Shown here: positions 38,201 through 63,510 of the stretch, one piece after another
Numbering within the stretch: position 1 is the first letter of the stretch
Layout: each line of letters opens with the position of its first letter
Source of the DNA: a virus
Lineage: Duplodnaviria > Caudoviricetes
Virus record (IMG/VR): IMGVR_UViG_3300021426_000072
Location: 1-64,000 of that record
DNA: 64,000 nucleotides
Strand: one strand, 5' to 3'
Position numbers and translations under genes: made by a program
The notes under the pieces: model-generated
Told to the model about the DNA's origin: nothing
The model's database searches: none
The model's input: only the letters and a program-made list of their open reading frames with translations

Positions 38201-41200
38201 CAGAGCCTTCAAATGAATACAGAGGAGGAACAGGAGGTTGGTTATTAGATCCTCCTCCTCTATTATTCTGGAGAGGTAATTCAGGCGAGTTTAATGAATG
38301 ATTAGATTGAAAAGAAAAAACTCCAGGCAACGCATATTTATTGAAATATCCCTGTCTGATTTCATGGAATGGATCAGGGTTATTCATAAGATTGATTGCA
38401 GCAGAAGAAAGGTTACGCATACGCTCTTCTACGCTGCTAATCATTTCTGTAGTAATCGGAACAGATCTTGTTTCAAGTTTTCCGTTGCCATAAGAGATTA
38501 TTCCTGCATGAGTTGCTTTGTTGTCACCTGCATACAAAACGGGCTGATCGTATCTGTGACTTTGTCCAGTCTTTTCGTCAATCCACTCAAGAGACTTATC
38601 GTGAGTAAAACCTTCTTTTGCATCCCAGTTTGTAATAGCTCCAGTCCTTGGATCACGAGTAACAAGATCGATATAGCCAACAGAATCAAGCCGACGACCT
38701 AATTTATCGACACCAAGATTTGGATGGACAATACCGCCATTTTTCTCAGCACCAATAATTTCTAAGTCTTTCATGAAATCTGGCAGGCTACGTACAGAAC
38801 TAACAATAGATTGATAGCGCTGTTTTACTTTTGCATCATATAGTTTGCTATCTTCTGTTGGTAATTCGGGGAACAAAGATAATTTTTTCCCTGTTTTTTC
38901 GTCTACCCAATTAAGCAAATAATCGTTTAATAACGCCTCATATTCGTCTGGCGTGCCATAATCATTTTGATTTTTCATTCTTCTGCCAGCCCAAGTTTCT
39001 TGAACTTTATGATAAGCAGAACCAAGAAGCATTAAAGGAGTTATTTCATCAGGAATTCCCGCAATGTATCTGGTGTACCAATTCTCTCCGCCGCTGGCGC
39101 TTTTTTCAATAGTGTGTAATTGGCTCCATGAATACTGACGAGTATTTGCTTTATTTACGGCTTCTGCAATAGCTTCTTGCCGAGCAATATTTTCAGAAGT
39201 AGCCAGTAATTGAGGATCTGCCCCTGAAAGAACAATACTCTTAGAAAGGAGAGCATCCTGTTCAGTATCAAATGCACTTGCAAAATTAGAACGAGAACCA
39301 GTTAGACGACCTTTCGCTAATCCAGAAGAACTAATAAATCCATCTTTTCTATTTGCAGCTTCTTCTGTTATACCATATCCGTGTAAAAATTCTAATCGTT
39401 TCTTTTGAAGCTCAGTTTCATAAAGCTGATTTCTCAAGTATTCCTTTTGAGCTTGAGAAATTCCCGGACGATTATACTCATCAGAAACTAATCCCGCCCA
39501 ATTTGCGTACAATCCTTTTAATTCGTTTTCATCTTTCGTAGAAACAATTTGAGCTTTATTAGAAGCGATTTGAGCCATCAAAGAATTATTTTTACGAAGA
39601 TATTGTGCTTTAGCTTTATCTGCGGGATTATTAGATGATTCAAGCGCATCTAATCCTTGTAAAAATTCTTGAGCTTGAATAAAAGATTCAATCATGTCAT
39701 TGCTAAAAGCACTATCCATTCCCGCTGCCAACATACTTGTTGTTAAATTTGAATAACGAGATGGAAAATTCACTTTTGAAAAATCTTTAACATTCGAAAA
39801 ATCACTGTTTTGAATTGCAGCATGTAAATTTTTAAACATACTGACATAAGGTGTTCCAAGATTTTTCGCGCCTCTTGCATAATGAGACCAAGAAGCAAGA
39901 ACACCAGTTTTGGCAAAAGTTGTATCGATATCGTACATTGCACGAAGATCAACGCCAGCCTGTCTTGCAAACTTAGCCCATTCAGGATCAAGCCAGTTCC
40001 CCTGAGAAAGAGCATCTCCAGCGTTGGAAACTCCAGCCATATCTAAAACAGAAGCTGCTTTTCGATAAAGCATGTCTGCAAAATCAGAACCTCGTACTTT
40101 TCGAGCTCCTCCTTTAAGAGGAATATCTTCTTCTTCTTTAATTGTTGGGCTTAATTTTGCAGCTTCAGATCCTCTAAATTTCCATGTTCTTTCTACTATT
40201 GTTCTTAATCTATTTCTGACAGCCTGAACAGTATCTCCATCGAAATCGCCGCCGCCCATCTTTTTGATAGTGTCCATGTTCATAACCATGGCATTACGGC
40301 TTATACCATACTCATCTAAAAGATTAATAAAATCTTTGGAGTTATATAACTTAAATTGTTCACCTACGTTGTTAGGGTAACGCCAACCTGCAATCTGATT
40401 GTCTGCCCACGCAGCAAGTGCAACAGCATCTTCGTCGCCTCTGCCTTTTAAACTTAATATGTTTGCAAGGTTTTTATTGACAGGAGCTTTTTTGTTGGCT
40501 TTTGCCATAGCGCTAATCAGTTCGAACGGATTGTTAATTGCAAGAGCGTTTAAAGCATCGCCCTTGGCAAAAAACCGTTCATTTAAAAGATCATCCTTAG
40601 CACTTTGAATTGAATCATTGACTCTTGCTCTTGCTTCGGGGTCGCTAAAAAAGAGACTATGATCTGCACTTACTCTTTGAGCCAACGGGTCATCTGGGTC
40701 AGAAAAAAGTAACTTGATAGTTTCTTCTGGATTATGTTCAAGAGTATCAATATACTTTTCCCATTTCTTTCTGTTTGCTGCAACATCTTTTTTACTAAGC
40801 GCTAAATTTTGAGTAACTTGTCTTGAAATAGAATCACTTCTGCTTAAAAATTCTTTATCTGTTGTTACTCCTCGAACACCACCAATTAAGTCGGCAATGT
40901 CAGAAAATAAATCTTGTATTTCTGTGTGACTTTTGCCTTTATAAAACGTGGTTTTATCCATCGTTTTATCGATCAAGGCCTCGTATTTAAGGATGTCTAC
41001 AAAATCTTCATCGAAAGATGTGAGACCAGATTTCTTATATGCTTGACGAACTGCTTCAATTCCACTTTTTTTGTAAAGCTCTTTCATTTCTGCTGGAGCA
41101 TTCCATGTCGGAGCGTAAAAAGAATCAACGTCTCCATATACATCTTTAATCATCTTTTTAAAATCAGTATTAAACCCAGCACCTTTAAATCCTACTGATC

Positions 41201-43154
41201 TTAAAGTCATTGCATCAGCAGGAAGGTATCCAGGCATAAACATAGCCCCGCCATCGAAACCTGTAAGAGAGTTCAAATCAACAAAAGCTATTTGATTTTT
41301 ATCAGGCATTCTTCCGCCAAGTTCAGAAAGAGGAATAGAAGGTGTATGTATTCTGTTTCTCGCATCAATCGGTTTGTTTAATCCTTTTATGGTATCAAAT
41401 GTTTCATCTTGGGAAATAAGATTTTGGAAAACATCTACGCCATACTTGTCAACGAATTGTGTTGCTTTTTCTAAATAAGCAGATTCAAGAGCCAAATCGA
41501 TAACGCCATTCTTATGAATGCCCGTAGGCACATAAGTTCCATTTTTGCCATAGCTGATTGTATTATATTTTAACTGATGATTTCCGGGAGTTGTTATAGT
41601 TTTTCCGTTTTCAACGTCAAATAACTGCGACACAAATGCCATTGTTTCAGCATTTGGTTTTGGTCTGCCGTTTTCAAAAATCGTTCTTCCAGAAGAATCC
41701 TTCTCGTAAATCCTGTCTGAAAGGTCAAGCTGTAACATTCTACGTGGACCGCTTTCAGAGCCATATGTGTTATGACCAGCCATTCCTAAAAGATCCGTAT
41801 AAATAGAACGACTAATCATCTTATTTACGGATTTCCCAGCAGGTCTTGTTTCAGCTAAAGATTGTTTAGGCTCTTTATCGTCAAGTATTACTCCATTTTT
41901 CAGATCATCCAAGGTTAAGGACATAATCTGGAAATAATCAGGACGAATATTTATAGAAGAATCAACAGCGCTTGAATTATCTGCGGAACGTCTATAACTT
42001 CTTGGCTTATCGAGATATAAAGGTTCTCTAACTGGGATTCCCTGTAAAGCGTCGAATGCAGCAAAGCTTTCTGATGCAACATGCGATGTTTTTCTTGCGA
42101 TTGCTTTTTGAGCATAATCATCGGAATTGGAAAGAAAATGACGGTACATCGGAGCACCTTCCAATGCCGGACGGAAAATATTTCTGTCTAAAAATCCTAA
42201 TGCAGCACCGTATTCTGCTTCGCTTATAGGTTTAGTGGGCATGATGAGTTGCCCGGCTTTTCCGTTAGCGACTCCTCTTTTTGCAACACCTGCCATCGTT
42301 AAAGCAGCTTCAAATGCAGGATATTTAGAAGCGACAGCTTTAACAACAGCATAATCTTCATCAGTTAAATTTCCCCCTTGATATGCTTTTCTTTTAGCTC
42401 CATTGCTAAAAGACGTTGTTTTTGGCACATCAGGGAAATTTCTAAAACTTTCCGGTAAACGATCTTTATACGTTACATACTCCGGTAAAACAGACAAACG
42501 TTTAAGCGTTCCTTGAGACGCATCTATTACCTTTTGATAATACGTGTCTCTGTTGTGAGAAGGCGTAGTATACTGAACAACACCTTTTATCAGCTCATCA
42601 ATTTGAGAATTAGATAATCCATATTTTGCGGAAACAGCCGAAGCGCCTTTTGCAAACGGTCCATTATTTTTCAAAATCGACATAAGCGCATCGTCTGATT
42701 GAGGCCCCATATTCCGAGTTGTCTTTCTCAATAAAGAAGAGGCTGTTTTTGACATGTCTGTAAATTCATGTTCAAAATCTTTAGCTAATGCTGAAGGAAC
42801 AGAAGAAAAAATCTTTCCTATAGATCCAGTAGAAGAGAATAACGATTCAACATTAGCTGTTAAATAGGCAATTCCTTGTTTTAAGCCTGTTATAATGTCG
42901 CTACTTATGGATTCTCCAAGCGCAGCGTTTTGAAGAACAGAAGTCAAACCTTTATATTGCTGGACAATATTAGTCTTTGCAGATGAAACATAAGTAGACA
43001 TTGCACTTGGAATGTTTCCAAATGAATTATTACTAAGCGAAGATAAAGAAAAGTTATCTTCTAATGTTTGTAATTGAGTCTGGCAAGCTAAAAGTTCTTG
43101 TTGGTCAAATGGTTTTAAATTTGGATTAATCTCAATGTCTATACGATTACTCAT
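29256..43154 (-). CDS. Tape measure protein with N-terminal two-barrel RNA polymerase and PD-(D/E)XK nuclease domains (4632 aa)
   Basis: TMP core YDKSMTEIQMIT...AGRQRS...KLNNVKTAF (~35950-36870), hydrophobic segment, coiled coils, C-terminal YAEGGLVDFTGPAWVDGTPQRPESFL; lies downstream of the chaperones. RNAP motifs at aa ~633-1085, nuclease motifs at aa ~1341-1545. Confidence 0.92.
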   Translation of the reverse strand: MSNRIDIEINPNLKPFDQQELLACQTQLQTLEDNFSLSSLSNNSFGNIPSAMSTYVSSAKTNIVQQYKGLTSVLQNAALGESISSDIITGLKQGIAYLTANVESLFSSTGSIGKIFSSVPSALAKDFEHEFTDMSKTASSLLRKTTRNMGPQSDDALMSILKNNGPFAKGASAVSAKYGLSNSQIDELIKGVVQYTTPSHNRDTYYQKVIDASQGTLKRLSVLPEYVTYKDRLPESFRNFPDVPKTTSFSNGAKRKAYQGGNLTDEDYAVVKAVASKYPAFEAALTMAGVAKRGVANGKAGQLIMPTKPISEAEYGAALGFLDRNIFRPALEGAPMYRHFLSNSDDYAQKAIARKTSHVASESFAAFDALQGIPVREPLYLDKPRSYRRSADNSSAVDSSINIRPDYFQIMSLTLDDLKNGVILDDKEPKQSLAETRPAGKSVNKMISRSIYTDLLGMAGHNTYGSESGPRRMLQLDLSDRIYEKDSSGRTIFENGRPKPNAETMAFVSQLFDVENGKTITTPGNHQLKYNTISYGKNGTYVPTGIHKNGVIDLALESAYLEKATQFVDKYGVDVFQNLISQDETFDTIKGLNKPIDARNRIHTPSIPLSELGGRMPDKNQIAFVDLNSLTGFDGGAMFMPGYLPADAMTLRSVGFKGAGFNTDFKKMIKDVYGDVDSFYAPTWNAPAEMKELYKKSGIEAVRQAYKKSGLTSFDEDFVDILKYEALIDKTMDKTTFYKGKSHTEIQDLFSDIADLIGGVRGVTTDKEFLSRSDSISRQVTQNLALSKKDVAANRKKWEKYIDTLEHNPEETIKLLFSDPDDPLAQRVSADHSLFFSDPEARARVNDSIQSAKDDLLNERFFAKGDALNALAINNPFELISAMAKANKKAPVNKNLANILSLKGRGDEDAVALAAWADNQIAGWRYPNNVGEQFKLYNSKDFINLLDEYGISRNAMVMNMDTIKKMGGGDFDGDTVQAVRNRLRTIVERTWKFRGSEAAKLSPTIKEEEDIPLKGGARKVRGSDFADMLYRKAASVLDMAGVSNAGDALSQGNWLDPEWAKFARQAGVDLRAMYDIDTTFAKTGVLASWSHYARGAKNLGTPYVSMFKNLHAAIQNSDFSNVKDFSKVNFPSRYSNLTTSMLAAGMDSAFSNDMIESFIQAQEFLQGLDALESSNNPADKAKAQYLRKNNSLMAQIASNKAQIVSTKDENELKGLYANWAGLVSDEYNRPGISQAQKEYLRNQLYETELQKKRLEFLHGYGITEEAANRKDGFISSSGLAKGRLTGSRSNFASAFDTEQDALLSKSIVLSGADPQLLATSENIARQEAIAEAVNKANTRQYSWSQLHTIEKSASGGENWYTRYIAGIPDEITPLMLLGSAYHKVQETWAGRRMKNQNDYGTPDEYEALLNDYLLNWVDEKTGKKLSLFPELPTEDSKLYDAKVKQRYQSIVSSVRSLPDFMKDLEIIGAEKNGGIVHPNLGVDKLGRRLDSVGYIDLVTRDPRTGAITNWDAKEGFTHDKSLEWIDEKTGQSHRYDQPVLYAGDNKATHAGIISYGNGKLETRSVPITTEMISSVEERMRNLSSAAINLMNNPDPFHEIRQGYFNKYALPGVFSFQSNHSLNSPELPLQNNRGGGSNNQPPVPPLYSFEGSVPVTQVDKPDLTKAFSGRQHIDETVDLYEELRGRMASMSRKYEQKTAKKPSTQWDNFKFQLGQDHYEDLRNTLSRIGASDEELALFSTSFDLANQQFEQTLRAGASGDFVAFNEDVFNRILNRKTTSSARKIVNEQKEIDENIERARSAYDILKEKAGTKPTDEDKAALTKAETALNSAYELKEEYEQMLLEDAEEIMSEDISKFILSSQGKNANPKDKIKLSASKFEKQQDILRRSLDNLRANDKIGKDKYDELSTLLNSFSKEDYEKILNEDLQRQNDAFDITRQNQIASISRQNDMALAQQEQQYDRYKQQRRMRRSRSRFMQLYNQDENYRISLENQAQAYSNKIADERGNINLWRSQLTGNAEQDKSLNKNIAQAEEKIKGYTEALRAAEAEQKNFSSGQNAMNAAMTTVSNLASAAGRMLGRQLWYRIRKEVTSFVRDYDKSMTEIQMITLKSDEEISQLGDKLIRTAQTSGSTVTEVTSAASNLYRQGLSDEEVDARLDDVIKFSKVAGIKTTEASKIITTALQNGLVDNSQEAMDALVALGDSAATTASEISKGMQKSAAAAKQAGMSYGELVTLLTIGTSKTQLGGSNIGSSLNTLIYRLYKVNNNEDFTDEAGRHISSTAATKALSRMGISLYDDKGNFRGPYQILQDIGAGWENADDTTQSMILTTLGAGRQRSNIATLLQGLAEDGGELAQRYLDTAQNSEGITDRKYENYLDSLEAKLNNVKTAFDNLISSFELSETATGFLDFLSETIQNITAAEKATGALSGAIKILGIALGAMMIAAKPWAALFTGIALITTGIVSSIGEQKRKSDNAILEKEEERTIRKSQIKQISDRTSGVDQIIEETKSLIEKSNSVTGLTSDETTQLEANLGSLAGEFGHVGSEVQGLIGNYDALITKMKEFETENNKRKGRNTANIIDTELKYGSNPFDISSNLEYALASGNLQSYLSHEHHVSTGIGMMDYSSPENFMENSVGEWMRETLKYIYDKKLINLPADLDYIDSADKYADLIISGEGGTKSQRTSAGKQLLDFILTYKGEADGGLTKEIKEQLIGEALNARADRIINDVAIASGIDEKYIPSFMSSFINNVQSTENYSQRPYAAYQTALKNLLSYTDEEGLISREALTRYVLDNLSDEEYKGILEKKYGKTFAEQTESEVKQNIAKAVVRQVSPEDRDKLIEEQMNAMRSVYKYPETEQGVNEALEDYDLNFFATHKRWATGRGELPAWVDDSSFTGPLYKITDNNETQILTEDKFKQNERKLRAVAEKLVDLSSDWILQIGDSIYLFDYEPSTEEIEAAESEYEDSMKTLVSNTAKNVKEIADAFNLNIDIEDVIAEAEETEKIKSKGPVRSTFRKALEDAISTEGASEAGQKAINADTLLTNIYSLQINSLQDLIDAVNRGDINSSLYTQAVEDTGLGRLLSSYFVERNFVDENYNPVTVTTSTDTDNVAFGKFIEALASKSNEYKGITIDAYSSKAERATSILRALDEMGNENPFGGDREELTTIFGDQFASKVLSSNMVTSGSSNTLSSLERQYAKDIATNFGYGINGLVDFQKINTQQELFDSVLKGTYNDYVGTTDQTIIDAYTSGNDQLASILKAQRQLNKYEGINKPTSLADYAENQEQYKEFTKVLEEAGIPTENFKTGIDNVDEALKKASADVKNFAKDTKSTTAYMDLFSKDAKKSSSAIMQMNQSMSKISQNQYYRQQYKQGKRDSETVNAVAGLLGVDKRQLESMNKALVDSLLESSEQVDISGIEDYANSLSESISQTLTDHFKNGDAIEVKGAPITIGSGPVSVSLDEALNETDLYLNEAQESVLKELQAWGVKAHLEVNAGKDSFDAKLVIDGLGSGTRGGGGGGGGGKSAVDKLLESQKRRLAELEHRSKLLESTEKDLDFRNDYSGSFGNINNQIDLQYELREAYNQNIAELNNMMKTVSSSSDDWYKLRDAVYAAEEALAEINNTINSINSKKIEVLADKLEEQTKPGTHKESMLEKYAQRAMNEDRFADYERFTEQNIKEIQTRRLNNDSDITAWKKQLAEFEKDTDAWRDVRDKIWEKEEENAELDNQLVQMQLDINSQRLSQIAKVLQQNTQTASHNQNIASMYGSAYESGGYRSQYEDMLREQQRINSTIAVNNKIAETAAIEQMNTLQEGSTAWFEAQAAVYQYQEAIAQTETSQMELNRALAESNLSGLTENYEDATREITHVNEMLNEQAQEYLDTNDYDAYFEAMQMYLNNIPDLVEAEIAAVNTLWSQYNEGMLAGLLDPAIQREYLDQINTYESNLQNLIIEQRKQTRELAKIRLDKIFEDQDLIASEYDHNLKLLGYESSKYQSNGELKNVNALIEEENDLRHERVNELMAEIVQLEKEHALFSDGSKEEKRIVEQIKKREESLEAENVQIEKNNKLHDENVKKIMQVRKALEDAVDKEIEAEKKRNREILNANVSMQNTIVDLLKRRLQNEWDLKKKDLDKEKENLEEYKRLINERFAYRKKASEQADKDEELADYRRQLALIQADPTRSKDALELQRKIEDLEKEQAWSIAEDQLNAENERIDEQAEGLGKFIQYNEELLNDILSDANNFAAEMNDILSGSFEDSYDKIMEFMRKENEAFMKSLPDAQKQMIQGWEDTWKKANDIVDSNYAMITSILTSKDSFLDYMRNTDREYRSFKENNDQNSMALLERQWSEYYDNDVNANKTGATFDLHNHSLSDVESKIDELKNNVFNVNVIGVSGEVGSPYGLSDSTINTIDFSNGKELSLEDLNNIYKIIEPIEAPTPEPQSSTPQKQPAQKTYYFTTTDERGNPTSQGGSVPASSYTEAMQKAIAAAKEMGRLVDVVYLKDDYKDKKNPVKSSYTSAGANYSMHYAEGGLVDFTGPAWVDGTPQRPESFLDAEDTSLMRAMLDSFKYITVKSATTSLSDLSLKGNTSVGDINITINAAEFKSDEDYDKVARKVGQAFVKEITKQGLNLSGYSF
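38350..39140 (-). other. PD-(D/E)XK (RecB/AddB-family) nuclease domain within the TMP; boundaries approximate
   Basis: YSWSQL...WYTRYIAG...LLGSAYHKVQE...GAEK...GYIDL (D1496)...WDAKEG (D1511)...DQPVLY. Confidence 0.8.
39700..41650 (-). other. RNA polymerase domain (YonO/RdRP-like double-psi-barrel family) within the TMP; boundaries approximate
   Basis: FDGG (D634), LRSVGFKG (R652), SRQVTQNL, WRYP (R925), GGGDFDGD (D970-D974, nt 40233-40247), DTTFAKTG (K1082); same order as in the 813-aa RNAP. Confidence 0.88.
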
Positions 43155-49540: not shown

Positions 49541-50539
49541 TTAACCAATCTCGTAAGCACCGATAGTCGGAACGCTGCCGACAACCCAAGCCGCACCAAA
49601 GCGCTGAGACAGTTCAGTCTCGAACGTATGGTCGTCAATGGTCTGCTGAGTCATGCTGAAAGTCGGGCCTTCATTCAGGACTTTCAGGTTCCGCTGATCG
49701 TTGGAAACACCAGCAGAGATGATGTAAATCCAGTCAGGATCGAGAATAGGCGTGGTCTTGCCATCTTCATATGCATTAACCATCTGCACAACACCACAGC
49801 CATTGTAACGGCCCAGATAACCGTTGTTGTTCTTCTCATCGATCATACTGCCAGAATACTGAATGCTGTTGGCGTTTACAGGAGCACCAGCCAGACCAAA
49901 CAGTCCTTCAACAGCAGCAGCGTCGCCCACCAGGGAAACACCGCCCAAACGCTTGAAGTACTGAAGTTGAGCATCCAGAGTAGCCTTAACAATACCCGTA
50001 CCAGTACCATAGAAAGGAGAACTGTACTGGGCAATCGCATTATGCAGAACCTGCTCAACATGCTTCAGTTTCAGCATCGTGAATTCTTTATTGGCATCAC
50101 GAATCAGATCGGGCATGTTGATACGGCCCATGCGGATATCCCAAACATTGATAGCGGGACGAGCAGCGATTTCAAAGGTATTGATAGAGAACTGACGATC
50201 AGTCACATAGCTACGAGCAGTAGTAGCACCGGTAGCCTGAATGAACGCCTTGATACCAGCAGTCTTCATCCGATACATCGGACGATCACCCAGTCCGACA
50301 TTGCGGATATCAGCAAAGGTCTCCATGAAATTCAGGGAATTCTGTTGCAGTTCATTGATGGTGAACGCAATGATCTGACCGATCTGATACATGTTCTGAG
50401 GATTCATTTCCTGAGCCAGTTCGTTTACGATAGCGGAAGCCTCTTCCACCTTATCGGAATCAACAGATTCACGACGAACCTGAGCAGCCATTACTTTAAT
50501 GAGCTTGCTGTCATTCTTAACTTCGATAGCCATTGTCAT
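49541..50539 (-). CDS. Major capsid protein
   Basis: Position after protease and decoration genes; FADIRNVGLGD and GYLGRYNG motifs; strong codon bias. Confidence 0.85.
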   Translation of the reverse strand: MTMAIEVKNDSKLIKVMAAQVRRESVDSDKVEEASAIVNELAQEMNPQNMYQIGQIIAFTINELQQNSLNFMETFADIRNVGLGDRPMYRMKTAGIKAFIQATGATTARSYVTDRQFSINTFEIAARPAINVWDIRMGRINMPDLIRDANKEFTMLKLKHVEQVLHNAIAQYSSPFYGTGTGIVKATLDAQLQYFKRLGGVSLVGDAAAVEGLFGLAGAPVNANSIQYSGSMIDEKNNNGYLGRYNGCGVVQMVNAYEDGKTTPILDPDWIYIISAGVSNDQRNLKVLNEGPTFSMTQQTIDDHTFETELSQRFGAAWVVGSVPTIGAYEIG

Positions 50540-52381: not shown

Positions 52382-53938
52382 TTATTCATTTCCCATAGAT
52401 CCTTCTGGATTAGAAGGCTTCGGCTGTTTACCTCGAATTGCAGCTTCTGGATCAGATTTTCTTTCTGAATCATCTACTGGATTGCGACCAGCTTCATTCT
52501 GTGCGCTGGCTTCAACATCCCGTGGAGCCATAATCTTATCTGTTCCATCTGACTTTTCCTGTTCTCTCTTCTTTCTTTCTCTTTCCAGAGAATAGCCCTC
52601 AGATTTAGACATTGTGTCAGTAGAGATAACGCCTTTCTCCCAAAGTTCAAGAGCTTTTTCACGAAGGGCTTTCTTTCCTTCGATAGAGAGAGGCTGGAAA
52701 TGGAATTCAGGAATCTGTTTAAGATTATAAGTTCCGGGGATACTTTCAGTAAGACGCTCATTAATCTTGGTCATCATTTCGCAGAACTCTTTTCGGAAAG
52801 CTTCGATACGAGCTTCCGCTGTTTGAGTTGAAACCTGCGCAGATGCAAAAGTAGAGCCGTCTTCTGAAACACCAGTCACAAGAACTCCGCTAATACCTCC
52901 GGCAGAAAGAATATCGTTATTGACGTTTCTGTATTTATCCCATTGAAATAAGTCATCCATGTCAAACTGAATTGTTTCTGCTGAAGCTAAATGGTTTGTA
53001 ACAGCCACAGGAGTTCCACTCATTGCCTGAATAAAAATCCTTCTGACTTTCGACAGCTGCGGTTCATCAGGCAAAATATCGTTTGTTTTAGAACTTTCAC
53101 CATACTTAACATGAACAAAACTTCTTTTGCCGATATTGAGCATGGCATCTTCATAACTGGAGATGAGTTCTTTCTTGGCAAGAGGCCGTAAAGCAGAAGC
53201 AATAAAAGGAATTGCATACTTTTTCCATGTTTCTTTCGGACCTTGTAAGACAAAGGTATAATCAGGATTAAGCTGTGCATACTGCTTATTAGCTTTAACT
53301 GCTTTTTGGATTTCCTCTGGATAACCTTTTAAAACATAATCACGATTGCTATCCTTAACCTTTTCATCAATGCTGTAAGATTTAGTCTCAATTTCATTGA
53401 TAATGCTTTGACAGTCAAAGTCAACAATCGGTGTTCCATTAAAGGTTGTATTACCAATTCTCCATTTATTAACAGGAAGAGTAATTAAGTCACCGTCTTT
53501 TAAATAACAACAGACATTATTAAACTTCCAAAGTTCAAGCATGATTGCGTCGATCTTTTCTCTGAGCCGCATACGTTTATATTGCTGCTCGAAAAGTTCA
53601 TATGTTTTTTCATTTGACTTAGTAAGGAACCAGTCCGAACAAGTAGAAAAGGGAACAAACACATGATAAATCATGCCATGAACAATAGGATCGGCATCAG
53701 AATAATAATCAGCCAACTGATAAAAAGACTGAATATTAGCCTGCTTATCTCTTAAAAGCGAAACATAGTCGAAAGACGATAGTTCACCAGAAAATGTGAA
53801 ATTGGAATTAGAGAAAGCTTGAATAGTGTCCTCACCTGAAGCTGGCTTTTCAACTCCAACCACGATCTCTTTCTGTTCCTGAGGCTTACTCGCCACAATT
53901 GGTTCGGCCCGGTTAAAGAACCGATCAAATAACGCCAT
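52382..53938 (-). CDS. Portal protein
   Basis: 518 aa directly after the large terminase; YAIPF, DKYRNVNNDILSAGGI motifs. Confidence 0.8.
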   Translation of the reverse strand: MALFDRFFNRAEPIVASKPQEQKEIVVGVEKPASGEDTIQAFSNSNFTFSGELSSFDYVSLLRDKQANIQSFYQLADYYSDADPIVHGMIYHVFVPFSTCSDWFLTKSNEKTYELFEQQYKRMRLREKIDAIMLELWKFNNVCCYLKDGDLITLPVNKWRIGNTTFNGTPIVDFDCQSIINEIETKSYSIDEKVKDSNRDYVLKGYPEEIQKAVKANKQYAQLNPDYTFVLQGPKETWKKYAIPFIASALRPLAKKELISSYEDAMLNIGKRSFVHVKYGESSKTNDILPDEPQLSKVRRIFIQAMSGTPVAVTNHLASAETIQFDMDDLFQWDKYRNVNNDILSAGGISGVLVTGVSEDGSTFASAQVSTQTAEARIEAFRKEFCEMMTKINERLTESIPGTYNLKQIPEFHFQPLSIEGKKALREKALELWEKGVISTDTMSKSEGYSLERERKKREQEKSDGTDKIMAPRDVEASAQNEAGRNPVDDSERKSDPEAAIRGKQPKPSNPEGSMGNE

Positions 53939-53957: not shown

Positions 53958-55649
53958 TTAAAAACGATTGAACGTTTTAATAATATTTTTTGAAAAACCA
54001 TCATCAAATCCGCCTGTAACGCCTATACACTCACGACCATGCTGATGCAGTTTAATACTGACCTTTTCAAGTTCGGAGATATAGTCATTACCCATAGCAA
54101 GTGCTGAATAACGGTCTTTATGCATCGTAGACTTAGGTACGTCATAAATGAAGTTACCGCTTGCGCCTACTCTGGCAACAATATTGCCCATTTCAATCTG
54201 AAGAGCGTCTGCCTCAATAAAATTGGCAAACTCTTCTTTTGAAAATTTCTTTTCGGATTCTTCCTGTTTTTCCCTCATGATTCTGGAAGAAATAGGAAGC
54301 TCTATTGTCTGCTTTTCAAGAGCAACTCTTAAATTTGTATAGATTCTCTGGTTAAGCTGATTGACAGCCCTGAAAGGATGCAAAGCCTGAACAGCGTCCG
54401 GGTTGGTTAAAGGTTCATCATCTACAACCAACGGCGGATACTCCCTCCCGGATTCACCGTCAATCCATGCCTTGTCAAAGAATCTGTCGAAACTATCACC
54501 TATGCCCCTTGCGTCGTAAACAATCTTTTCAGTATTAGGGAATTTAATGTGATAGTACTTTCTGACTGTTTCTGCGAGATAGTCCAAAGGAATACCATTA
54601 AAGGAACGCAAATGGACAACCTGCTTACTGAAAGACCCGTCTTTCTTTTCATTAAACTTATGTACAACCAAAACACTATTGTCTGATCCTTTGGCTTTGG
54701 ATGTAGCTATATCCAACGAAATAATATACCGGGACTTAGAGCCTTTCGGCTGTTCCATTTCAATGTTGGATAAAGTACGACAACTTTGGACAAGATCAAA
54801 TGGAAGAGCTGAATCTTCAGAAGACCCAAGGAATTTTGACTCATATTCCATTTGGAACGTTGTCTCAGGAATACTGTCCTTTTCTTCCATGTAGTACTTC
54901 TCTTTGGTTAAACCTTCCGCAATTGGGGTCTTGTAATGCAGCACACAAGCAAAATAAGACTTGTCTCCAGAAGCCATCCGCTGAACAATACGTTCGAATT
55001 CTTTAAAGAATTCATAGTTCTTTGGACAGGCAGAAGTAATATAGATGATCTTGGAATCAAAATCATCAAAACCAAAAGCCCGAGGATTATAGCGGGTTTC
55101 GTTTCTTGTGGGCTTCGCAACTTCCTGAAGAATCTTCATATCCACATCACGAGCTTCATCCACAATAAGAAGCTTACATCGATAAGATCTGGCACGGGCA
55201 ATAGGAACTGATTTAATTGTGCTGCCGTTCTTCAGCATGATATTGGACTCGTCTTTACTAATAGAAACATATGTCTTTGCGTTAGTCGGACGAATTTCAT
55301 TCCTGACGTTTTCGTTCTCATTGCAAAGATCACGTATCTTTTCAGCAATACGAGTAGCCTGGTCTGCCGTAGGAGCAACAACAAGAATAGAAGTTCCGGG
55401 ATAAAGAGAACCAAGGGAAATAGCAATAAATGCCGTCAGCCATGTTTTACCATACCCACGAGGAGCAACAATAGCCGATGTAGTAGCATTACCAACCCCA
55501 CGAGCAATAACATGCTGAATTGGAGTAAGCTTTACAGGAGCAAAGGCACTCTCAATATACATATCCATATGGGTACGGAAATAGATTATCTGTTCTTCTA
55601 TTACGTCCCAGTTGGTGATTGTGCCGTTTTGTCTTCGGGTGTCAATCAT
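53958..55649 (-). CDS. terL: Terminase large subunit
   Basis: Walker A APRGYGKT, Walker B LLIVDEAR, YITSA, nuclease SLDIA...KDRYSAL. Confidence 0.95.
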   Translation of the reverse strand: MIDTRRQNGTITNWDVIEEQIIYFRTHMDMYIESAFAPVKLTPIQHVIARGVGNATTSAIVAPRGYGKTWLTAFIAISLGSLYPGTSILVVAPTADQATRIAEKIRDLCNENENVRNEIRPTNAKTYVSISKDESNIMLKNGSTIKSVPIARARSYRCKLLIVDEARDVDMKILQEVAKPTRNETRYNPRAFGFDDFDSKIIYITSACPKNYEFFKEFERIVQRMASGDKSYFACVLHYKTPIAEGLTKEKYYMEEKDSIPETTFQMEYESKFLGSSEDSALPFDLVQSCRTLSNIEMEQPKGSKSRYIISLDIATSKAKGSDNSVLVVHKFNEKKDGSFSKQVVHLRSFNGIPLDYLAETVRKYYHIKFPNTEKIVYDARGIGDSFDRFFDKAWIDGESGREYPPLVVDDEPLTNPDAVQALHPFRAVNQLNQRIYTNLRVALEKQTIELPISSRIMREKQEESEKKFSKEEFANFIEADALQIEMGNIVARVGASGNFIYDVPKSTMHKDRYSALAMGNDYISELEKVSIKLHQHGRECIGVTGGFDDGFSKNIIKTFNRF

Positions 55650-57127: not shown

Positions 57128-57174
57128 AAAAAAAGGGGACAAACATATTGATACAGAATTCTGTCCCCTTTTTT
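57128..57174. terminator. Bidirectional terminator-like hairpin in the strand-switch region
   Basis: AAAAAAAGGGGACA / TGTCCCCTTTTTT. Confidence 0.7.
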
Positions 57175-57176
57175 AT

Positions 57177-57250
57177 TTTGAAAAGAGGTTTGGAAATTAA
57201 AAAGAATTGGAATTTGAAGAGAGGTTTGAAAATTTAAAAAAGTGTTGGAA
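57177..57250 (+). repeat. Imperfect tandem direct repeat (two units of ~37 bp) rich in TTGGAA/TTTGAA
   Basis: TTTGAAAAGAGGTTTGGAAATTAAAAAGAATTGGAA versus TTTGAAGAGAGGTTTGAAAATTTAAAAAAGTGTTGGAA. Confidence 0.7.
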
Positions 57251-57431
57251 TGGAACTGAAGTGAAGGAATTCCAGCGTCTGAAAGTTTTTCAGCGTAAAT
57301 TGGACGACGTTGGAACACAATCTGTAGCCTGATCAACTGTAGATTGCAAACTCTTTATCAGTAAATGTGCTGATAAGACAAAAAAGCGTTCATTTTAACA
57401 AAAATGACGCTAAAAAGAAAGGGGAATACTC

Positions 57432-57846: not shown

Positions 57847-58071
57847 ATGAAGAAAGCAATCATCATCCTCGTTGCCCTTATTATTGTTTTTGTTGTCGGA
57901 TTTATGTCGGGAGCAAGAACAGTCCTCTTTGACTCTCCCAAATGGGTTGAAGAAGTCCACGGTCAGTACTTAATTGTTACTGACTTCTTTGGCAACGAAT
58001 ACGTTGACATGGCTGACAAAACTGGGCATATGTACTCGTATTTCTCTTATGTTGTCGAAAGAAGGCCTTGA
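57847..58071 (+). CDS. Small membrane-anchored or secreted protein
   Basis: AGGAGG RBS; MKK followed by a hydrophobic stretch. Confidence 0.7.
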   Translation: MKKAIIILVALIIVFVVGFMSGARTVLFDSPKWVEEVHGQYLIVTDFFGNEYVDMADKTGHMYSYFSYVVERRP

Positions 58072-58073
58072 AT

Positions 58074-58487
58074 ATGACAGGTTAGTGGCTTTATGACCCA
58101 ATACATCCCAGCCGGATCGACGAAGAGTTTTATGGATATTTCGAAGGAAAAGACGCCTTTGAAATATTCACAAGCTTTCTTGTCACTTTTTACGAGATAT
58201 CCGTTATGAACAAAGACAATCCTAACGGAGCTTATGCTCATAAGGTGTCGGCTGTTGTCAAAGAAGGTAGAGCATCTTATATCGTTGAGACATCATTTTA
58301 TGGATACTCTGCCGGAGAAGAGGAATGTCTAAGCGAAACAGACCTTTTCAGAGGATTAATAGATCGTTTACTCAACTATAAAAACTATATAAATCCGGTC
58401 GTTTACTCAAATAACGAAGGTCACTTTATTGAAGATAACGACCCAAGTGAGCTTGTTCCTATACTTCCAATAGAATTGCCTTTCTAA
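58074..58487 (+). CDS. Hypothetical protein with an in-frame TAG at codon 4 (readthrough, pseudogene, or true start at 58206)
   Basis: ATG 58074 follows the upstream stop with GAAAGAAGG; TAG at 58083-85; frame then open to TAA 58487. Confidence 0.5.
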
Positions 58488-58661
58488 GAATTTCGTCCTG
58501 AGCAAGACGTTAAAAGGCTTTTCTTAGTTTTGAAAATTCGAGCCTTGTGCTCTTTATATAAATTGCGAAGCTGCTGTCGCATAGAGTTCAGCAGTCGGTT
58601 AAAGCTCCGTTAAAAGCTTATTTTCAATTCCCAGAACACAAACAACAAGGAGGAAACTATC

Positions 58662-61103
58662 ATGAAACTCATCAACAAGATCAACCTCGCTGAAAACCAT
58701 GTGGAAAAGATCGCTCTCTTTGACTCTGCTCTCACCCGCAAATTCGACGATATGGGACTCGATCCCATCAACGTCATTTGCAAAATTTGCGCTGAAACCC
58801 CGAAGCGCAAGGAAGCCGAAGAGATTGTCAAGGCCACGCTGACCAACATGGTCGCGTCGGGCTTCATGTTCAACGGAAGCATCAACACGCCCTTCATGTC
58901 CGGTGCTTCTGACGGACGCAAAGCCACTTCAACGTGGATTAATCAGGACATTCTGCCCGGTATGGGAAAATGGGCGATGTGCGGACTTGTAAGCAAGAAA
59001 ATGGAGCTTGCCATCAATAAGTACATGTCATACACTGGACTTCTGTCTTCTGCAAGCAAGCCGTTCGATAAGGCATTCAGCAAGAAAATCGATATTCGGC
59101 GTGTTGCCGTAATCAAAGACGTAGATGTCATAGTCGATGCCATCGTTGACTATGTGTCAGCAACAGACGGGATCGAGAAAGAAAAGACCCGCCAGCTCGT
59201 CATCAATGCCTTTGATGGATTTGGATGCATCCGCATCGAACTTACCAACGGCGAATCTGTCACCATTCGTGCACCTTGGATGAAGGCGTTCGTACAGGCT
59301 ATTGACTTCAAGAAAGTATACGCTTGGTGTATCAAGAACGGAGTTAAAGCAGAGTTCGTTGATCGTTGGGGAACAACGTGGAAACTCAAAGACGTAGACA
59401 TGATTCTTACAGAAAGCTGCTTCAAAACAGCAAAACTGTACGATTCGTGGGAACAGTATTGCTCCGCTTTTGAAGAATTGAAACACGAAGTGTGCGTGTG
59501 TGTTCGTGAGCACGCACCTAAACTGAAAGGTCTTCCTTATCAGCAAGGGCAGACTCTTCTCGGCACTGAAGACGATGCAACGTCTTTCATGCAGCACGCC
59601 AAGGCTACCGTGTACAAGTACCATGAACCGAAGAACGCAGCTAAACTGCTCCGTGGATGGCAGCGGGTTGCTGCTAAGATTTATCCGGCTCTGATGAACG
59701 AACCGGAAACATATCGGACGATTCAGGAAGCATTCACCACCAAACGCAATGACATGCTTGGCGGACGTATCCCTGAACTGGGATATAATGCGTTTATTGC
59801 GCCCGATCCTGTGGCGTTTATCCAGCACCTGTTTGGACTGCCCATCACGGGATACCTGAAGGCTGGCGAATGCTTCTGTGCAGCCGCAAAACCCGGAACA
59901 GTAGACGTAACTCGTAATCCGCATTTGGACAATGCGCATGTGCTGCTAAATAACGTAACCTTCTGTCCTCTGGCTGAAGGTCCTACGATGTTTATCAACA
60001 TTTTCGACGCAACGACCATTCGTCTTCGTTGTGACTATGACGGTGACCACGTCTGGTACAGTCAGGATGAGCACCTGCTTGATCTTGTTGAAAGAACTTA
60101 CAGCGAACTGAAGAACATCCCGATTGACTGGGATGCTCCGAAAGCTCCGAAAGGACCTGTAAACAAGAAGACGATTGGTGAGTTCATCATCAATCTTATT
60201 CATGGATCAGAGATTGGTCTGTACGCAGACGCTCTGACTAAAATGTGGAACACCAAGTATGATCGTGAAGTGTGTGACTGGCTCACTTGGGCTGGCAACG
60301 TACTGATCGACGCAGCAAAGCACGGAAGTGTAAAGATTGAGAAACCTGACGCAGTCAAGAATCTCAATTATGTTTCACTTCCTCTGTTCGCCATGTATGC
60401 CAAGGCGGATGCTGATCATCCTGCCGGAAGTGACTATTGGCTCAAAGAACGGGTTACTTCTACTGGCATGGAACTTCCGCCTCGGTGTGCTTACTCTGGA
60501 TCTTTCTTGGATATGTATTCCAAGAAGATCAAAGAGAATATTCCTGAAGTGTTGGAAATTGAAGGTCTTAACGACCAGATGTTCGATTTCACTATGCTGA
60601 TGATCAACATTCACAGGAAAGTCGGAAACTTCGTTGGCTTATCAAAGAAGGGTGTATATGATCCAGAAACTAATACATTCAAAGATTGTGGACTGTTTCA
60701 GGACATCGCCTTCCGTCACAGCTCCCAGTGGAACGAACTGATCGGAAATGCTTCCTTCTTCGCAAACCGTCAGGAATGGGAAGAGGAAACAGGAAGAACA
60801 GCTCGGAAAGAGATTCTGGATTGGGCTTACGCTCAGTACCCGGACCTCGAACGTTCTCCTTCTATGGACGAACGTATTGACGATGCCTGCTATGACATCA
60901 TTCTTCGCAACATCTTCACTTCGAAGATGAGTGAAGGTATGGACAAAGTCGTAAAGCAGGCATTCTGGAGAATTTACGGAGATAAAGCCGTAGAAACTCT
61001 GAAGAGCAAACTTCATCCTGAACTTTCGGACGAAGAACTGCTTACTCTCCCTGACATCGATTGTGATGATGTTGAAGAACTGGTTAATCCTGACGAGGAT
61101 TAA
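58662..61103 (+). CDS. YonO-like single-subunit DNA-dependent RNA polymerase (non-virion RNAP)
   Basis: NKYMSY, FDGFG (D185), IRAPWMK (R203), TESCFK, YQQGQTL, TRNPHL (R418), CDYDGD (D458, nt 60033-60047), IDAAKHG; AGGAGG RBS. Confidence 0.9.
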   Translation: MKLINKINLAENHVEKIALFDSALTRKFDDMGLDPINVICKICAETPKRKEAEEIVKATLTNMVASGFMFNGSINTPFMSGASDGRKATSTWINQDILPGMGKWAMCGLVSKKMELAINKYMSYTGLLSSASKPFDKAFSKKIDIRRVAVIKDVDVIVDAIVDYVSATDGIEKEKTRQLVINAFDGFGCIRIELTNGESVTIRAPWMKAFVQAIDFKKVYAWCIKNGVKAEFVDRWGTTWKLKDVDMILTESCFKTAKLYDSWEQYCSAFEELKHEVCVCVREHAPKLKGLPYQQGQTLLGTEDDATSFMQHAKATVYKYHEPKNAAKLLRGWQRVAAKIYPALMNEPETYRTIQEAFTTKRNDMLGGRIPELGYNAFIAPDPVAFIQHLFGLPITGYLKAGECFCAAAKPGTVDVTRNPHLDNAHVLLNNVTFCPLAEGPTMFINIFDATTIRLRCDYDGDHVWYSQDEHLLDLVERTYSELKNIPIDWDAPKAPKGPVNKKTIGEFIINLIHGSEIGLYADALTKMWNTKYDREVCDWLTWAGNVLIDAAKHGSVKIEKPDAVKNLNYVSLPLFAMYAKADADHPAGSDYWLKERVTSTGMELPPRCAYSGSFLDMYSKKIKENIPEVLEIEGLNDQMFDFTMLMINIHRKVGNFVGLSKKGVYDPETNTFKDCGLFQDIAFRHSSQWNELIGNASFFANRQEWEEETGRTARKEILDWAYAQYPDLERSPSMDERIDDACYDIILRNIFTSKMSEGMDKVVKQAFWRIYGDKAVETLKSKLHPELSDEELLTLPDIDCDDVEELVNPDED

Positions 61104-61909: not shown

Positions 61910-61958
61910 AAAAGCGGGGGGGATTTTTTCTCGCCTTCCAAACTTGCTCACCTTTCCT

Positions 61959-61987
61959 ACGGCGCAAGCGCCTGTAGATGCTATGAA
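61959..61987 (+). promoter_or_regulatory. Hairpin motif copy 2 (ACGGCGCAAGCGCC-TGTAGATGCTATGAA)
   Basis: Between a terminator and the RNase H RBS. Confidence 0.6.
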
Positions 61988-62021
61988 AATTATTTCTATT
62001 CAACAGAAAGGAGCCAAAACA

Positions 62022-62459
62022 ATGTATGACGTGATTATTTTCACGGACGGTGCTTGCTCTGGAAATCCCGGTGTTGGCGGTTACGGAGCTATCCTGACCT
62101 GCAAGGGTGTCGAGAAAGTCGTTCGTGGCTACTGCGCTCAGAAAACGACCAACAATCGTATGGAACTGATGGCTGTCATCTCTGCTCTGAAAGCCCTGAC
62201 CAAACCCTCCAATGTGGTTGTTTACACTGATGCTAACTACATCTGCCAGTGTGTCTCCCATGATCGCAAATGGCTGACAGACAAAGAACGTGTCAACAAT
62301 GACCTCTGGTTGGAGCTTATCACCACGGGTCTGAATGGCGGACATAAGATCACATTCCAGAAGGTAAAGGGTCACGACGGTGTCGTTATGAACGAACGTT
62401 GCGACAAGATTGCCAAGGAACAGTGCCGGAAAGCTCGTCATGAAGCTTTCAATAAGTAA
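62022..62459 (+). CDS. rnhA: Ribonuclease HI
   Basis: IFTDGACSGNPG, TTNNRMEL, YTD, N.DLW, KVKGH, NERCD; RBS GAAAGGAG before ATG 62022. Confidence 0.95.
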   Translation: MYDVIIFTDGACSGNPGVGGYGAILTCKGVEKVVRGYCAQKTTNNRMELMAVISALKALTKPSNVVVYTDANYICQCVSHDRKWLTDKERVNNDLWLELITTGLNGGHKITFQKVKGHDGVVMNERCDKIAKEQCRKARHEAFNK

Positions 62460-63138: not shown

Positions 63139-63510
63139 ATGAATCGTGCGTTTATTATCGGACATGTTACCAAGGACGCTGAAACCCGTTCCGTGAATGT
63201 GAAAGGCATTCCTACCCTGGTTACTGACTTCACCGTCGCCGCCAACGAAGGCTACGGCGAGAACCAGACGACAGCCTATTACCGGGTGTCCATCTGGCGT
63301 GATCGTGGAGCGAAGATGGCTCCGCATCTGGTGAAGGGCCGCGCCGTGAGTATCGCCGGTATCCCGTCCGTCCGGGCATGGAAGGATAACAACGGTGATC
63401 CGCGTGCCCAGCTGGAAATGACGAACCCCACTGTCGAGTTCATCGGCAAGAAGCCGTCTGATCCTGATGACCTGCCCTTCGCAGCGGAGGCCGTCGAAGA
63501 AGAGGCGTAA
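63139..63510 (+). CDS. ssb: Single-stranded DNA-binding protein
   Basis: MNRAFIIGHVTKDAE...FTVAAN...LVKG..V.I.G; acidic tail with DDLPF. Confidence 0.92.
   Translation: MNRAFIIGHVTKDAETRSVNVKGIPTLVTDFTVAANEGYGENQTTAYYRVSIWRDRGAKMAPHLVKGRAVSIAGIPSVRAWKDNNGDPRAQLEMTNPTVEFIGKKPSDPDDLPFAAEAVEEEA

Follow-up and report, generated by a model that had tools for sequence, protein, structure and literature searches.

Introduction

Single-chain two-barrel RNA polymerases (RNAPs) are the simplest relatives of cellular RNAP, and to our knowledge only YonO, the P23-45 pair, crAss gp66, and the QDE-1/RDR enzymes have been studied. The subject here is P0001, a gene for a stand-alone RNAP of 813 amino acids (aa) in a 64,000-nucleotide stretch of phage DNA, considered together with two other RNAPs of the same genome: one forms a domain of the tape measure protein, and the other, of 955 aa, is encoded farther along. 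The stretch, called the window below, comprises bases 1–64,000 of the 127,247-bp IMG/VR record IMGVR_UViG_3300021426_000072. This genome and its relatives hold three deeply diverged versions of the two-barrel enzyme in one phage.

Two described systems come closest to this arrangement. In Thermus phage P23-45, the virion RNAP gp96, a tape measure fusion, occupies an end region of 9 kb in which the gene for a second enzyme, gp64, also lies. Early and middle genes over 49 kb are covered by gp64, and late transcription falls to the host enzyme (PMC10770324). The group also includes phages P74-26, G20c, and TSP4 (Chaban et al. 2024, PMC10770324; PDB 8h2m, 8f72, 8f5m). The published form of this strategy is a two-enzyme one, a virion tape measure RNAP and its non-virion homologue, described for Thermus phages in 2024. 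Among the phages surveyed in that paper, a few uncultured siphophages have two single-chain polymerases, and no trio with a tape measure fusion is listed (PMC10770324); a full-text literature search returned no other description of such a trio. In the second system, phage SPbeta, the 37 late genes transcribed by YonO form one operon with a single start site (Forrest et al. 2017, PMC5467207).

An earlier interpretation made from the letters of the window (the sequence-only reading) had proposed a relay of two homologous enzymes, in which the tape-measure-borne RNAP makes the 813-aa enzyme and the latter, as the counterpart of YonO, reads middle and late promoters. The present analysis agrees with it on the identity of both enzymes and departs from it on how many there are and on which of them is YonO.

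Identity and Fold of the 813-aa Enzyme

The 813-aa protein is almost certainly a two-barrel RNAP of the YonO/QDE-1 superfamily with its active-site residues intact. Its reading frame runs uninterrupted for 813 codons from an ATG preceded by an AGGAGG ribosome-binding site. The Pfam RdRP profile (PF05183) matches at 25.9 bits against a cut-off of 23.8, covering aa 458–576 only, while phrog_8308 matches with an E value of 1.4e-74 over profile positions 83–706 of 847. In a tblastn search, 72% of the protein aligns with SPbeta yonO at 26.5% identity (E 1e-31). Neither the protein nor its family profile found a match in sequence searches of the PDB. Relatives abound in the viral collections, with 202 matches at 55–96% identity in a collection clustered at 90% and 548 representatives after clustering at 50%. 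A scan of viral contigs with the single protein found none, but an alignment-based scan did find relatives.

The predicted fold points the same way. An AlphaFold model built on 33 sequences (predicted local distance difference test, pLDDT, 87; predicted template modeling score, pTM, 0.81) has only two-barrel RNAPs as its best matches in the PDB (Foldseek E 6e-17). Maize RDR2 comes first (Z 27.0, root-mean-square deviation 4.1, 618 residues aligned), followed by QDE-1 (Z about 24–24.5), with 618–633 residues aligned across the two. The non-virion gp64/gp62 enzymes of the P23-45 type follow at Z 15.8, crAss-like phi14:2 gp66 at Z 11.5, and P23-45 gp96 at Z 10.8.

The residues of the predicted active site are strongly conserved. 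The CDYDGD motif, which stands within the peptide RLRCDYDGDHVW, contains a putative metal-binding aspartate triad. These residues, D458, D460, and D462, are invariant in all 44 aligned sequences of the lineage to which the protein belongs (clade I, defined below) and in all 33 rows aligned with YonO orthologues. Replacement of the triad by Asn abolishes the activity of YonO (PMC5467207). Among the same 44 diverse clade I members, G186, R203, K255, and P420 are also invariant, and D185, K208, and R418 are each kept in 43. A joint alignment of both stand-alone families finds D185, G186, R203, and K208 invariant throughout, and hhalign pairs R203/K208 with an invariant R/K of the tape measure domain. 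R203 and K208 may thus be the catalytic basic residues of the other barrel. From its sequence, the protein is predicted to be an active, DNA-dependent, non-virion single-chain RNAP.

The sequence-only reading had called this a stand-alone polymerase of the same superfamily, and the Pfam, phrog_8308, tblastn, fold, and active-site results all agree. It was also accurate on the layout: the open reading frame (ORF) map has the CDYDGD gene as the fourth plus-strand ORF and the first large gene after the strand switch, divergent from the late operon.

A Third Polymerase and Two Deep Clades

A search of the full record with P0001 reveals a third RNAP gene, which lies outside the window. Its 955-aa product matches the full phrog_8308 profile (E 1e-179), and 90% of its length aligns with SPbeta YonO at 34% identity (E 1e-110). 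It carries a DWDGD motif and C-terminal CxxC pairs, and YonO has CxxC pairs too. The 813-aa protein, in contrast, lacks these pairs as well as about 80 N-terminal profile positions present in YonO-type enzymes.

Two trees separate the stand-alone enzymes in the same way. A FastTree phylogeny of 139 rows drew on 126 full-length representatives from among the best 150 of the 548 matches, on members of both families of this phage clade, and on SPbeta YonO and the Perkons, D-1873, and PMBT24 proteins. It splits the stand-alone polymerases into two deep clades, and 62 of the 126 representatives drawn from those best 150 group with the 813-aa gene. A site-heterogeneous IQ-TREE analysis (LG+C20, 31 rows) recovers the same split with full support (SH-aLRT, the Shimodaira–Hasegawa-like approximate likelihood ratio test, 100) on a branch of ~1.7 changes per site. 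Clade I contains the 813-aa gene. Clade II contains the 955-aa gene and all named YonO-type proteins, SPbeta YonO included. In the approximately unbiased (AU) test, uniting both families of the phage as one clade costs 382 log-likelihood units (p 4e-62).

Because the AU test rejects a single clade so decisively, the pair is, on phylogenetic grounds, an ancient paralogy rather than a recent copy, with clade I as a deep sister clade. A recent, lineage-specific duplication of YonO was considered and is ruled out by the same test. This answers, for the stand-alone pair, a question raised by the sequence-only reading, that of duplication against separate origin. It also revises two of its statements. 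The 813-aa enzyme is not the YonO equivalent of this phage, since the 955-aa gene is the true orthologue and the clades are deeply split, and the system consists of three homologous enzymes rather than two.

Clade I is broad. Every cultured-phage match of the 813-aa protein is a clade II protein that fits the 955-aa protein better, so clade I is without a cultured member in the phage collection searched.

The Tape-Measure-Borne Polymerase Domain

The remaining version of the enzyme is found near the N terminus of the 4632-aa tape measure protein, where the sequence GGGDFDGD occupies aa 967–974. Residues 450–1250 are conserved in 51 giant tape measure proteins of 2765–5908 aa. Among 16 of these proteins that are 28–69% identical, the motif MGGGDFDGD is invariant save for the F and a nearly invariant second G, and an R and a K upstream of DFDGD are essentially invariant.

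An AlphaFold model of aa 300–1400 (pLDDT 78, pTM 0.70) resembles QDE-1 (Z 19.1, 524 residues aligned) and RDR2 (Z 18.8) most closely, then gp62/gp64 (Z about 16–16.3) and P23-45 gp96 (Z 11.5). Comparison of broad alignments by hhalign links the domain to clade I with 97.4% probability (E 1.4e-11) and to clade II with 93.5% (E 2.3e-7), as against an E value of 1e-103 between clades I and II. Profiles and predicted structures together indicate that the domain belongs to the same superfamily but stands much farther off, perhaps a little closer to clade I than to clade II. The link is visible to profiles and folds only: BLASTP of P0001 against the tape measure protein gave nothing significant, and tblastn of the tape measure N terminus against cultured phages gave no match. 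These results uphold the claim of the sequence-only reading that the tape measure protein bears a polymerase of the same broad family. This polymerase is presumably delivered with the tail.

Conservation of the Three Enzymes in Related Phages

The three enzymes are conserved as a set. Five related IMG/VR records of 105–151 kb, one of them with terminal repeats, were compared. A single gene of each clade is present in every record, with E values of about 1e-77 for clade I and, apart from one record whose clade II gene is in three pieces, about 1e-173 for clade II. In all relatives, the clade I gene lies 1–3 kb past the junction with the terminase block. The five tape measure proteins are 4687–5665 aa long, are mutually homologous by BLASTP over their N-terminal 1400 residues, and have a DxDxD motif at aa 900–1140, which reads DFDGD in three, DEDGD in one, and DYDAD in one.

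Divergence is far greater in the tape measure domain than in the two stand-alone enzymes. A BLAST-type search for the domain in the five relatives found none, and a purpose-made hidden Markov model (HMM) did not recognize it there, save for one weak match; it was identified by that match, the DxDxD motifs, and the mutual BLASTP similarity. Divergence beyond the reach of a purpose-made HMM suggests that the polymerase part of the tape measure protein is fast-evolving. The presence of the domain is less certain in the two relatives whose presumed catalytic motif deviates to DEDGD and DYDAD (G003 and G005).

The divided orthologue belongs to record G004 (C1:19492-23932), where the three pieces are separated by gaps of 1.4 kb and 0.3 kb. 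The YonO homologue of Clostridium phage c-st is also annotated as two genes, one N-terminal and one C-terminal, with another gene between them. Mobile insertions are suspected behind both split genes.

As for hosts, a search of 185,579 species genomes gave a single match to the clade I gene, which lies on a 9.7-kb contig in a Paludibacteraceae metagenome-assembled genome (MAG) from yak reticulum. Two related contigs are binned with Paludibacteraceae genomes. The strong AGGAGG ribosome-binding sites of the phage fit poorly with a Bacteroidota host.

The Locus and Its Neighbors

The features of the locus are listed in Table 1. The strand switch lies at ~56.96–57.43 kb, and the 813-aa gene begins ~1.3 kb into the non-structural block. 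The three small ORFs ahead of it gave no match in Pfam and PHROG searches and vary among relatives. Opposite, the minus-strand block encodes an HNH-like protein, terminase, portal, head, and tape measure proteins, and collagen-like tail fibers. Downstream of the 813-aa gene, the order polymerase, RNase H, single-stranded DNA-binding protein (SSB) is kept in the 8 relatives with enough downstream sequence, so that the three genes form a conserved early module.

Table 1. Features of the window and the third polymerase gene, in coordinates of the IMG/VR record.
Feature	Position	Strand	Basis
P0001, stand-alone single-chain two-barrel RNAP, 813 aa, clade I	58662-61103	+	ORF, profile, fold, trees
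First barrel segment FDG...R203...K208, conserved basic residues	59214-59285	+	Alignment
CDYDGD, putative metal-binding triad D458/D460/D462, aa 457-462	60030-60047	+	Alignment
Third RNAP, 955 aa, YonO orthologue (outside window)	92306-95173	+	Search of full record with P0001
Tape measure protein gene P0002, 4632 aa	29256-43154	-	Pfam PhageMin_Tail, aa 2123-2329; tape measure PHROGs
RNAP domain in tape measure protein, aa ~404-1149, candidate virion enzyme	39708-41945	-	Model and profiles
DFDGD of tape-measure-borne RNAP, aa 970-974	40233-40247	-	Aligns with DYDGD of P0001
Leader: AT-rich box (TTGAAA...TATATAAAT), then hairpins	58530-58650	+	Comparison with L010, L011
Junction element TTGGAATGGAAC ... 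TTTTCAGCGTAAATT, candidate late promoter or packaging (pac) site	57245-57301		Conservation
Terminator-like hairpin GGGGACA/TGTCCCC flanked by A run and T run, same on both strands	57128-57175		Sequence, fold
Three small ORFs ahead of P0001, 102/74/93 aa	57432-57740, 57847-58071, 58206-58487	+	ORF calls
RNase H gene	61944-62459	+	Pfam RNase_H, E 4e-34
SSB gene	63139-63510	+	Pfam SSB, E 2.8e-14
Large terminase gene	53958-55649	-	Structural block
Portal gene	52382-53938	-	Structural block
Major head protein gene	49541-50539	-	Structural block

The 955-aa gene heads a replication module, being followed by genes for an exonuclease, a second SSB, a primase-helicase, a PD-(D/E)XK nuclease, and the alpha subunit of DNA polymerase III (Pol III alpha). 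A retron-type reverse transcriptase gene lies upstream of it. Nine tRNA genes (Ser, Lys, Pro, Arg, Leu, Met, Thr, Gln, Asn) are dispersed over 70899–85822 of the genome in the plus-strand block and fall between the two stand-alone polymerase genes. Megablast with 14 kb of the window found no match among phages.

Two intergenic elements are candidates for transcriptional signals. The core of the junction element, CAGCGTAAA, has a single copy in 127 kb and is shared by seven related phages (with one A-for-G change in L012), ~180–330 nucleotides (nt) from the first conserved late gene. In L012 and L014, more minus-strand ORFs lie to the right of the element, so it seems to be tied to the late block and not to the strand switch. 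Its conservation in a single copy would fit a single late promoter, and it could equally be a packaging site. A resemblance of the motif to a site near the SPbeta late promoter region was rejected as a chance-level 8/9 match. The terminator-like hairpin stands between the junction element and the first late gene, with −17 kcal/mol for its best 50-nt fold, and a stable hairpin is found at a comparable distance in most relatives.

The second element is the leader immediately ahead of the 813-aa gene, a candidate promoter or leader of that gene. It is unique in the genome, almost unchanged in one relative (L010) though the proteins are 67% identical, and partly kept in another (L011). L011 shows possible compensatory changes, and the three-sequence fold is weak. 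Rfam has no match between 56.5 and 64 kb, a region that includes the leader. In a promoter search, the only exact k-mers enriched in intergenic DNA are tRNA T-arms, and 7- and 8-mer enrichment in the plus-strand block gave nothing consistent.

A Proposed Three-Step Relay and Its Alternatives

The three enzymes, with their identity, fold, and conserved active sites, their deep paralogy, and their conservation as a set, invite a model of how this phage is transcribed. Since the tape measure protein carries a remote homologue of the stand-alone enzymes, a hand-over from a virion to a non-virion RNAP like that of P23-45 is plausible. The phage combines elements of the P23-45 and SPbeta systems, which makes a scheme in three steps the simplest. 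First, the injected tape measure enzyme would transcribe the first-entering genes, including the 813-aa gene, much as P23-45 gp96 does with the gp64 gene. Second, the 813-aa enzyme would transcribe the 61-kb early and middle plus-strand block, which includes the gene for the YonO orthologue. Third, the YonO orthologue would transcribe the ~65-kb late operon, as YonO does in SPbeta, possibly starting at the single conserved junction element. The conserved RNase H may serve to clear R-loops left by minimal polymerases that lack a lid and rudder, a role suggested by the discussion of YonO in PMC5467207.

We infer the DNA-dependent activity of the enzymes, the virion location of the tape measure enzyme, the order of action, and the promoter assignments. 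The relay as a whole, with the tape measure enzyme acting before the 813-aa enzyme and the latter before the YonO orthologue on the late operon, is offered tentatively, as a reading that falls somewhat short of an even chance. A wider proposition can be framed from it: that a clade of phages of ~105–150 kb from animal-gut and other metagenomes runs all of its gene expression without host RNAP by means of three two-barrel enzymes, the tape measure enzyme first, the clade I enzyme for early and middle genes, and the YonO orthologue for late genes from one conserved promoter. In that full form it is doubtful, though a serious possibility.

Several observations weigh against the relay. The IMG/VR record is linear and estimated at 92% complete, and its ends need not be the physical genome ends or show which DNA enters first. 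None of the three enzymes has a repeated promoter-like motif, and the leader of the 813-aa gene contains a weak sigma-70-like TTGAAA/TATATA pair. The late role of YonO cannot be safely transferred from SPbeta: the YonO-type gene of SPbeta, Perkons, D-1873, and PMBT24 lies just upstream of the late operon and is followed by an HU gene, but here the 955-aa gene is 35 kb from the late operon and no HU gene (PF00216) was found in the genome. The RNase H and SSB partners of the 813-aa gene could point to a replication role. Finally, the genome encodes a tyrosine recombinase/integrase (PF00589, E 4e-19; 114767–115789, plus strand; no serine recombinase was found), which suggests that a temperate lifestyle is possible. 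No virion enzyme would be present after induction, and host RNAP may therefore have to start the program.

This last point is the core of the leading alternative, in which host RNAP transcribes the first genes, including the 813-aa gene, both on infection and on induction, with no obligatory hand-over from the virion. The tape measure polymerase would then be an accessory to DNA entry or to a few pre-early transcripts, and the 813-aa enzyme and the YonO orthologue would share the middle and late genes. Besides the integrase, the TTGAAA box and AT-rich box ahead of the 813-aa gene and a weak sigma-70-like site in the junction favor such a start. So does the precedent of SPbeta, where the host enzyme reads the induced genes that do not depend on YonO. 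SPbeta is a temperate phage and the one YonO phage that has been studied, and YonO is required for just 37 of the 148 genes induced in it (PMC5467207). Against this, a sigma-70 scan of the region gave 7 promoter-like matches, below the 11.7 expected from shuffled sequence, and lysogeny is undocumented, the single clade I match among the species genomes being on a short MAG contig. Moreover, the active site of the tape measure polymerase is invariant across the 16 diverged proteins described above, which argues that this enzyme does real work. A host-started program is considered unlikely.

The original two-enzyme relay fares worse. It holds that the tape measure enzyme makes the 813-aa enzyme and that the latter is a functional YonO reading middle and late promoters. 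It can draw on the homology of the 813-aa gene to YonO, its position next to the late operon, though divergent from it, and the precedent of P23-45. Yet this genome and each of the five relatives checked encode an orthologue closer to YonO, and the 813-aa gene sits in the other deep clade. Its product is without the N-terminal profile positions and the C-terminal CxxC pairs, and the gene is not co-directional with the late genes, unlike the YonO-type genes of all the phages compared (SPbeta, PMBT24, Perkons, D-1873). Given a true YonO orthologue in the genome and the clade split, the reading of late promoters, assigned by the sequence-only reading to the 813-aa gene, is more likely a role of the 955-aa enzyme. 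The two-enzyme version is thus quite improbable.

A third alternative would have the 813-aa enzyme, with RNase H and SSB, make primer or R-loop RNA at a phage origin. The polymerase–RNase H–SSB order is kept in 8 relatives while flanking small genes vary, and single-stranded templates are used by QDE-1 and RDR2, whose solved folds are the closest. Parallels exist in ColE1 RNA II with RNase H, in T7 RNAP at the primary origin, and in QDE-1 acting on single-stranded DNA with RPA. This role is nevertheless very improbable, since the main replication module (primase-helicase, exonucleases, second SSB, Pol III alpha) is 35 kb away beside the 955-aa polymerase, no origin-like repeats were seen beside the 813-aa gene, and RNase H is equally explained as R-loop clean-up for polymerases without a lid and rudder (PMC5467207 discussion).

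Significance

The three-step relay would carry the P23-45 strategy beyond the phages in which it was described. One of the three enzymes is fused to the tape measure protein, so that strategy appears not to be confined to phages of thermophiles, and here it would be extended by one tier. The three enzymes, whose promoters presumably differ, would also be a compact natural set of orthogonal polymerases, of use in studies of the evolution of promoter recognition by minimal polymerases and as a source of parts in synthetic biology. The present analysis contributes the phylogenetic placement of the stand-alone enzymes, the AU test, and the conserved polymerase/RNase H/SSB module.

Comparison with Known Systems

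The eukaryotic enzymes QDE-1 and RDR2 (PF05183; PDB 2j7n, 7w82) are the best structural matches over nearly the whole 813-aa protein (Z 24–27). They differ from it in sequence, with an identity of only 11–14%, and in setting, the phage gene lying in a transcription and replication context. They are also RNA-dependent, whereas YonO, the nearest studied relative of the phage enzyme, is DNA-dependent.

Virion delivery of an RNAP is a logic shared with crAss-like phage phi14:2 and with N4. The fold of phi14:2 gp66 (PDB 6vr4) is related (Z 11.5), but gp66, of 2180 aa, is packaged in the capsid and is not fused to a tape measure protein. The N4 enzymes are T7-like and have an unrelated fold.

With SPbeta YonO the 813-aa protein shares the single-chain two-barrel architecture and the DxDGD triad. 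It differs in being the product of a deep paralogue, shorter at both ends and without the C-terminal CxxC pairs, and its gene, unlike yonO, diverges from the late operon and has no HU gene after it. In SPbeta, PMBT24, Perkons, and D-1873, an HU-like gene lies within ~1 kb after the YonO-type gene, and in SPbeta and PMBT24 late genes or the large terminase gene then follow co-directionally. This pattern of gene position and HU is a recurrent feature observed in these four phages and not a published definition.

The resemblance to P23-45 is the most extensive. In both phages a two-barrel polymerase containing DFDGD lies in the N-terminal part of a giant tape measure protein, both have a separate, early-encoded, homologous stand-alone polymerase, and the same hand-over logic is proposed for both. 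The models of the 813-aa protein and the tape measure domain each match gp64/gp62 (Z 15.8 and 16.3, respectively) and gp96 (Z 10.8 and 11.5). Despite these likenesses, no similarity to the P23-45 proteins is detectable in sequence, and both modeled enzymes are structurally nearer to QDE-1/RDR2 than to gp64/gp96. The settings differ as well, since P23-45 comes from a hot spring and the source here appears to be animal gut, judging from the Paludibacteraceae bins, one of them from yak reticulum. Finally, P23-45 leaves its late genes to the host enzyme, whereas the phage described here has three polymerases of its own and an integrase.

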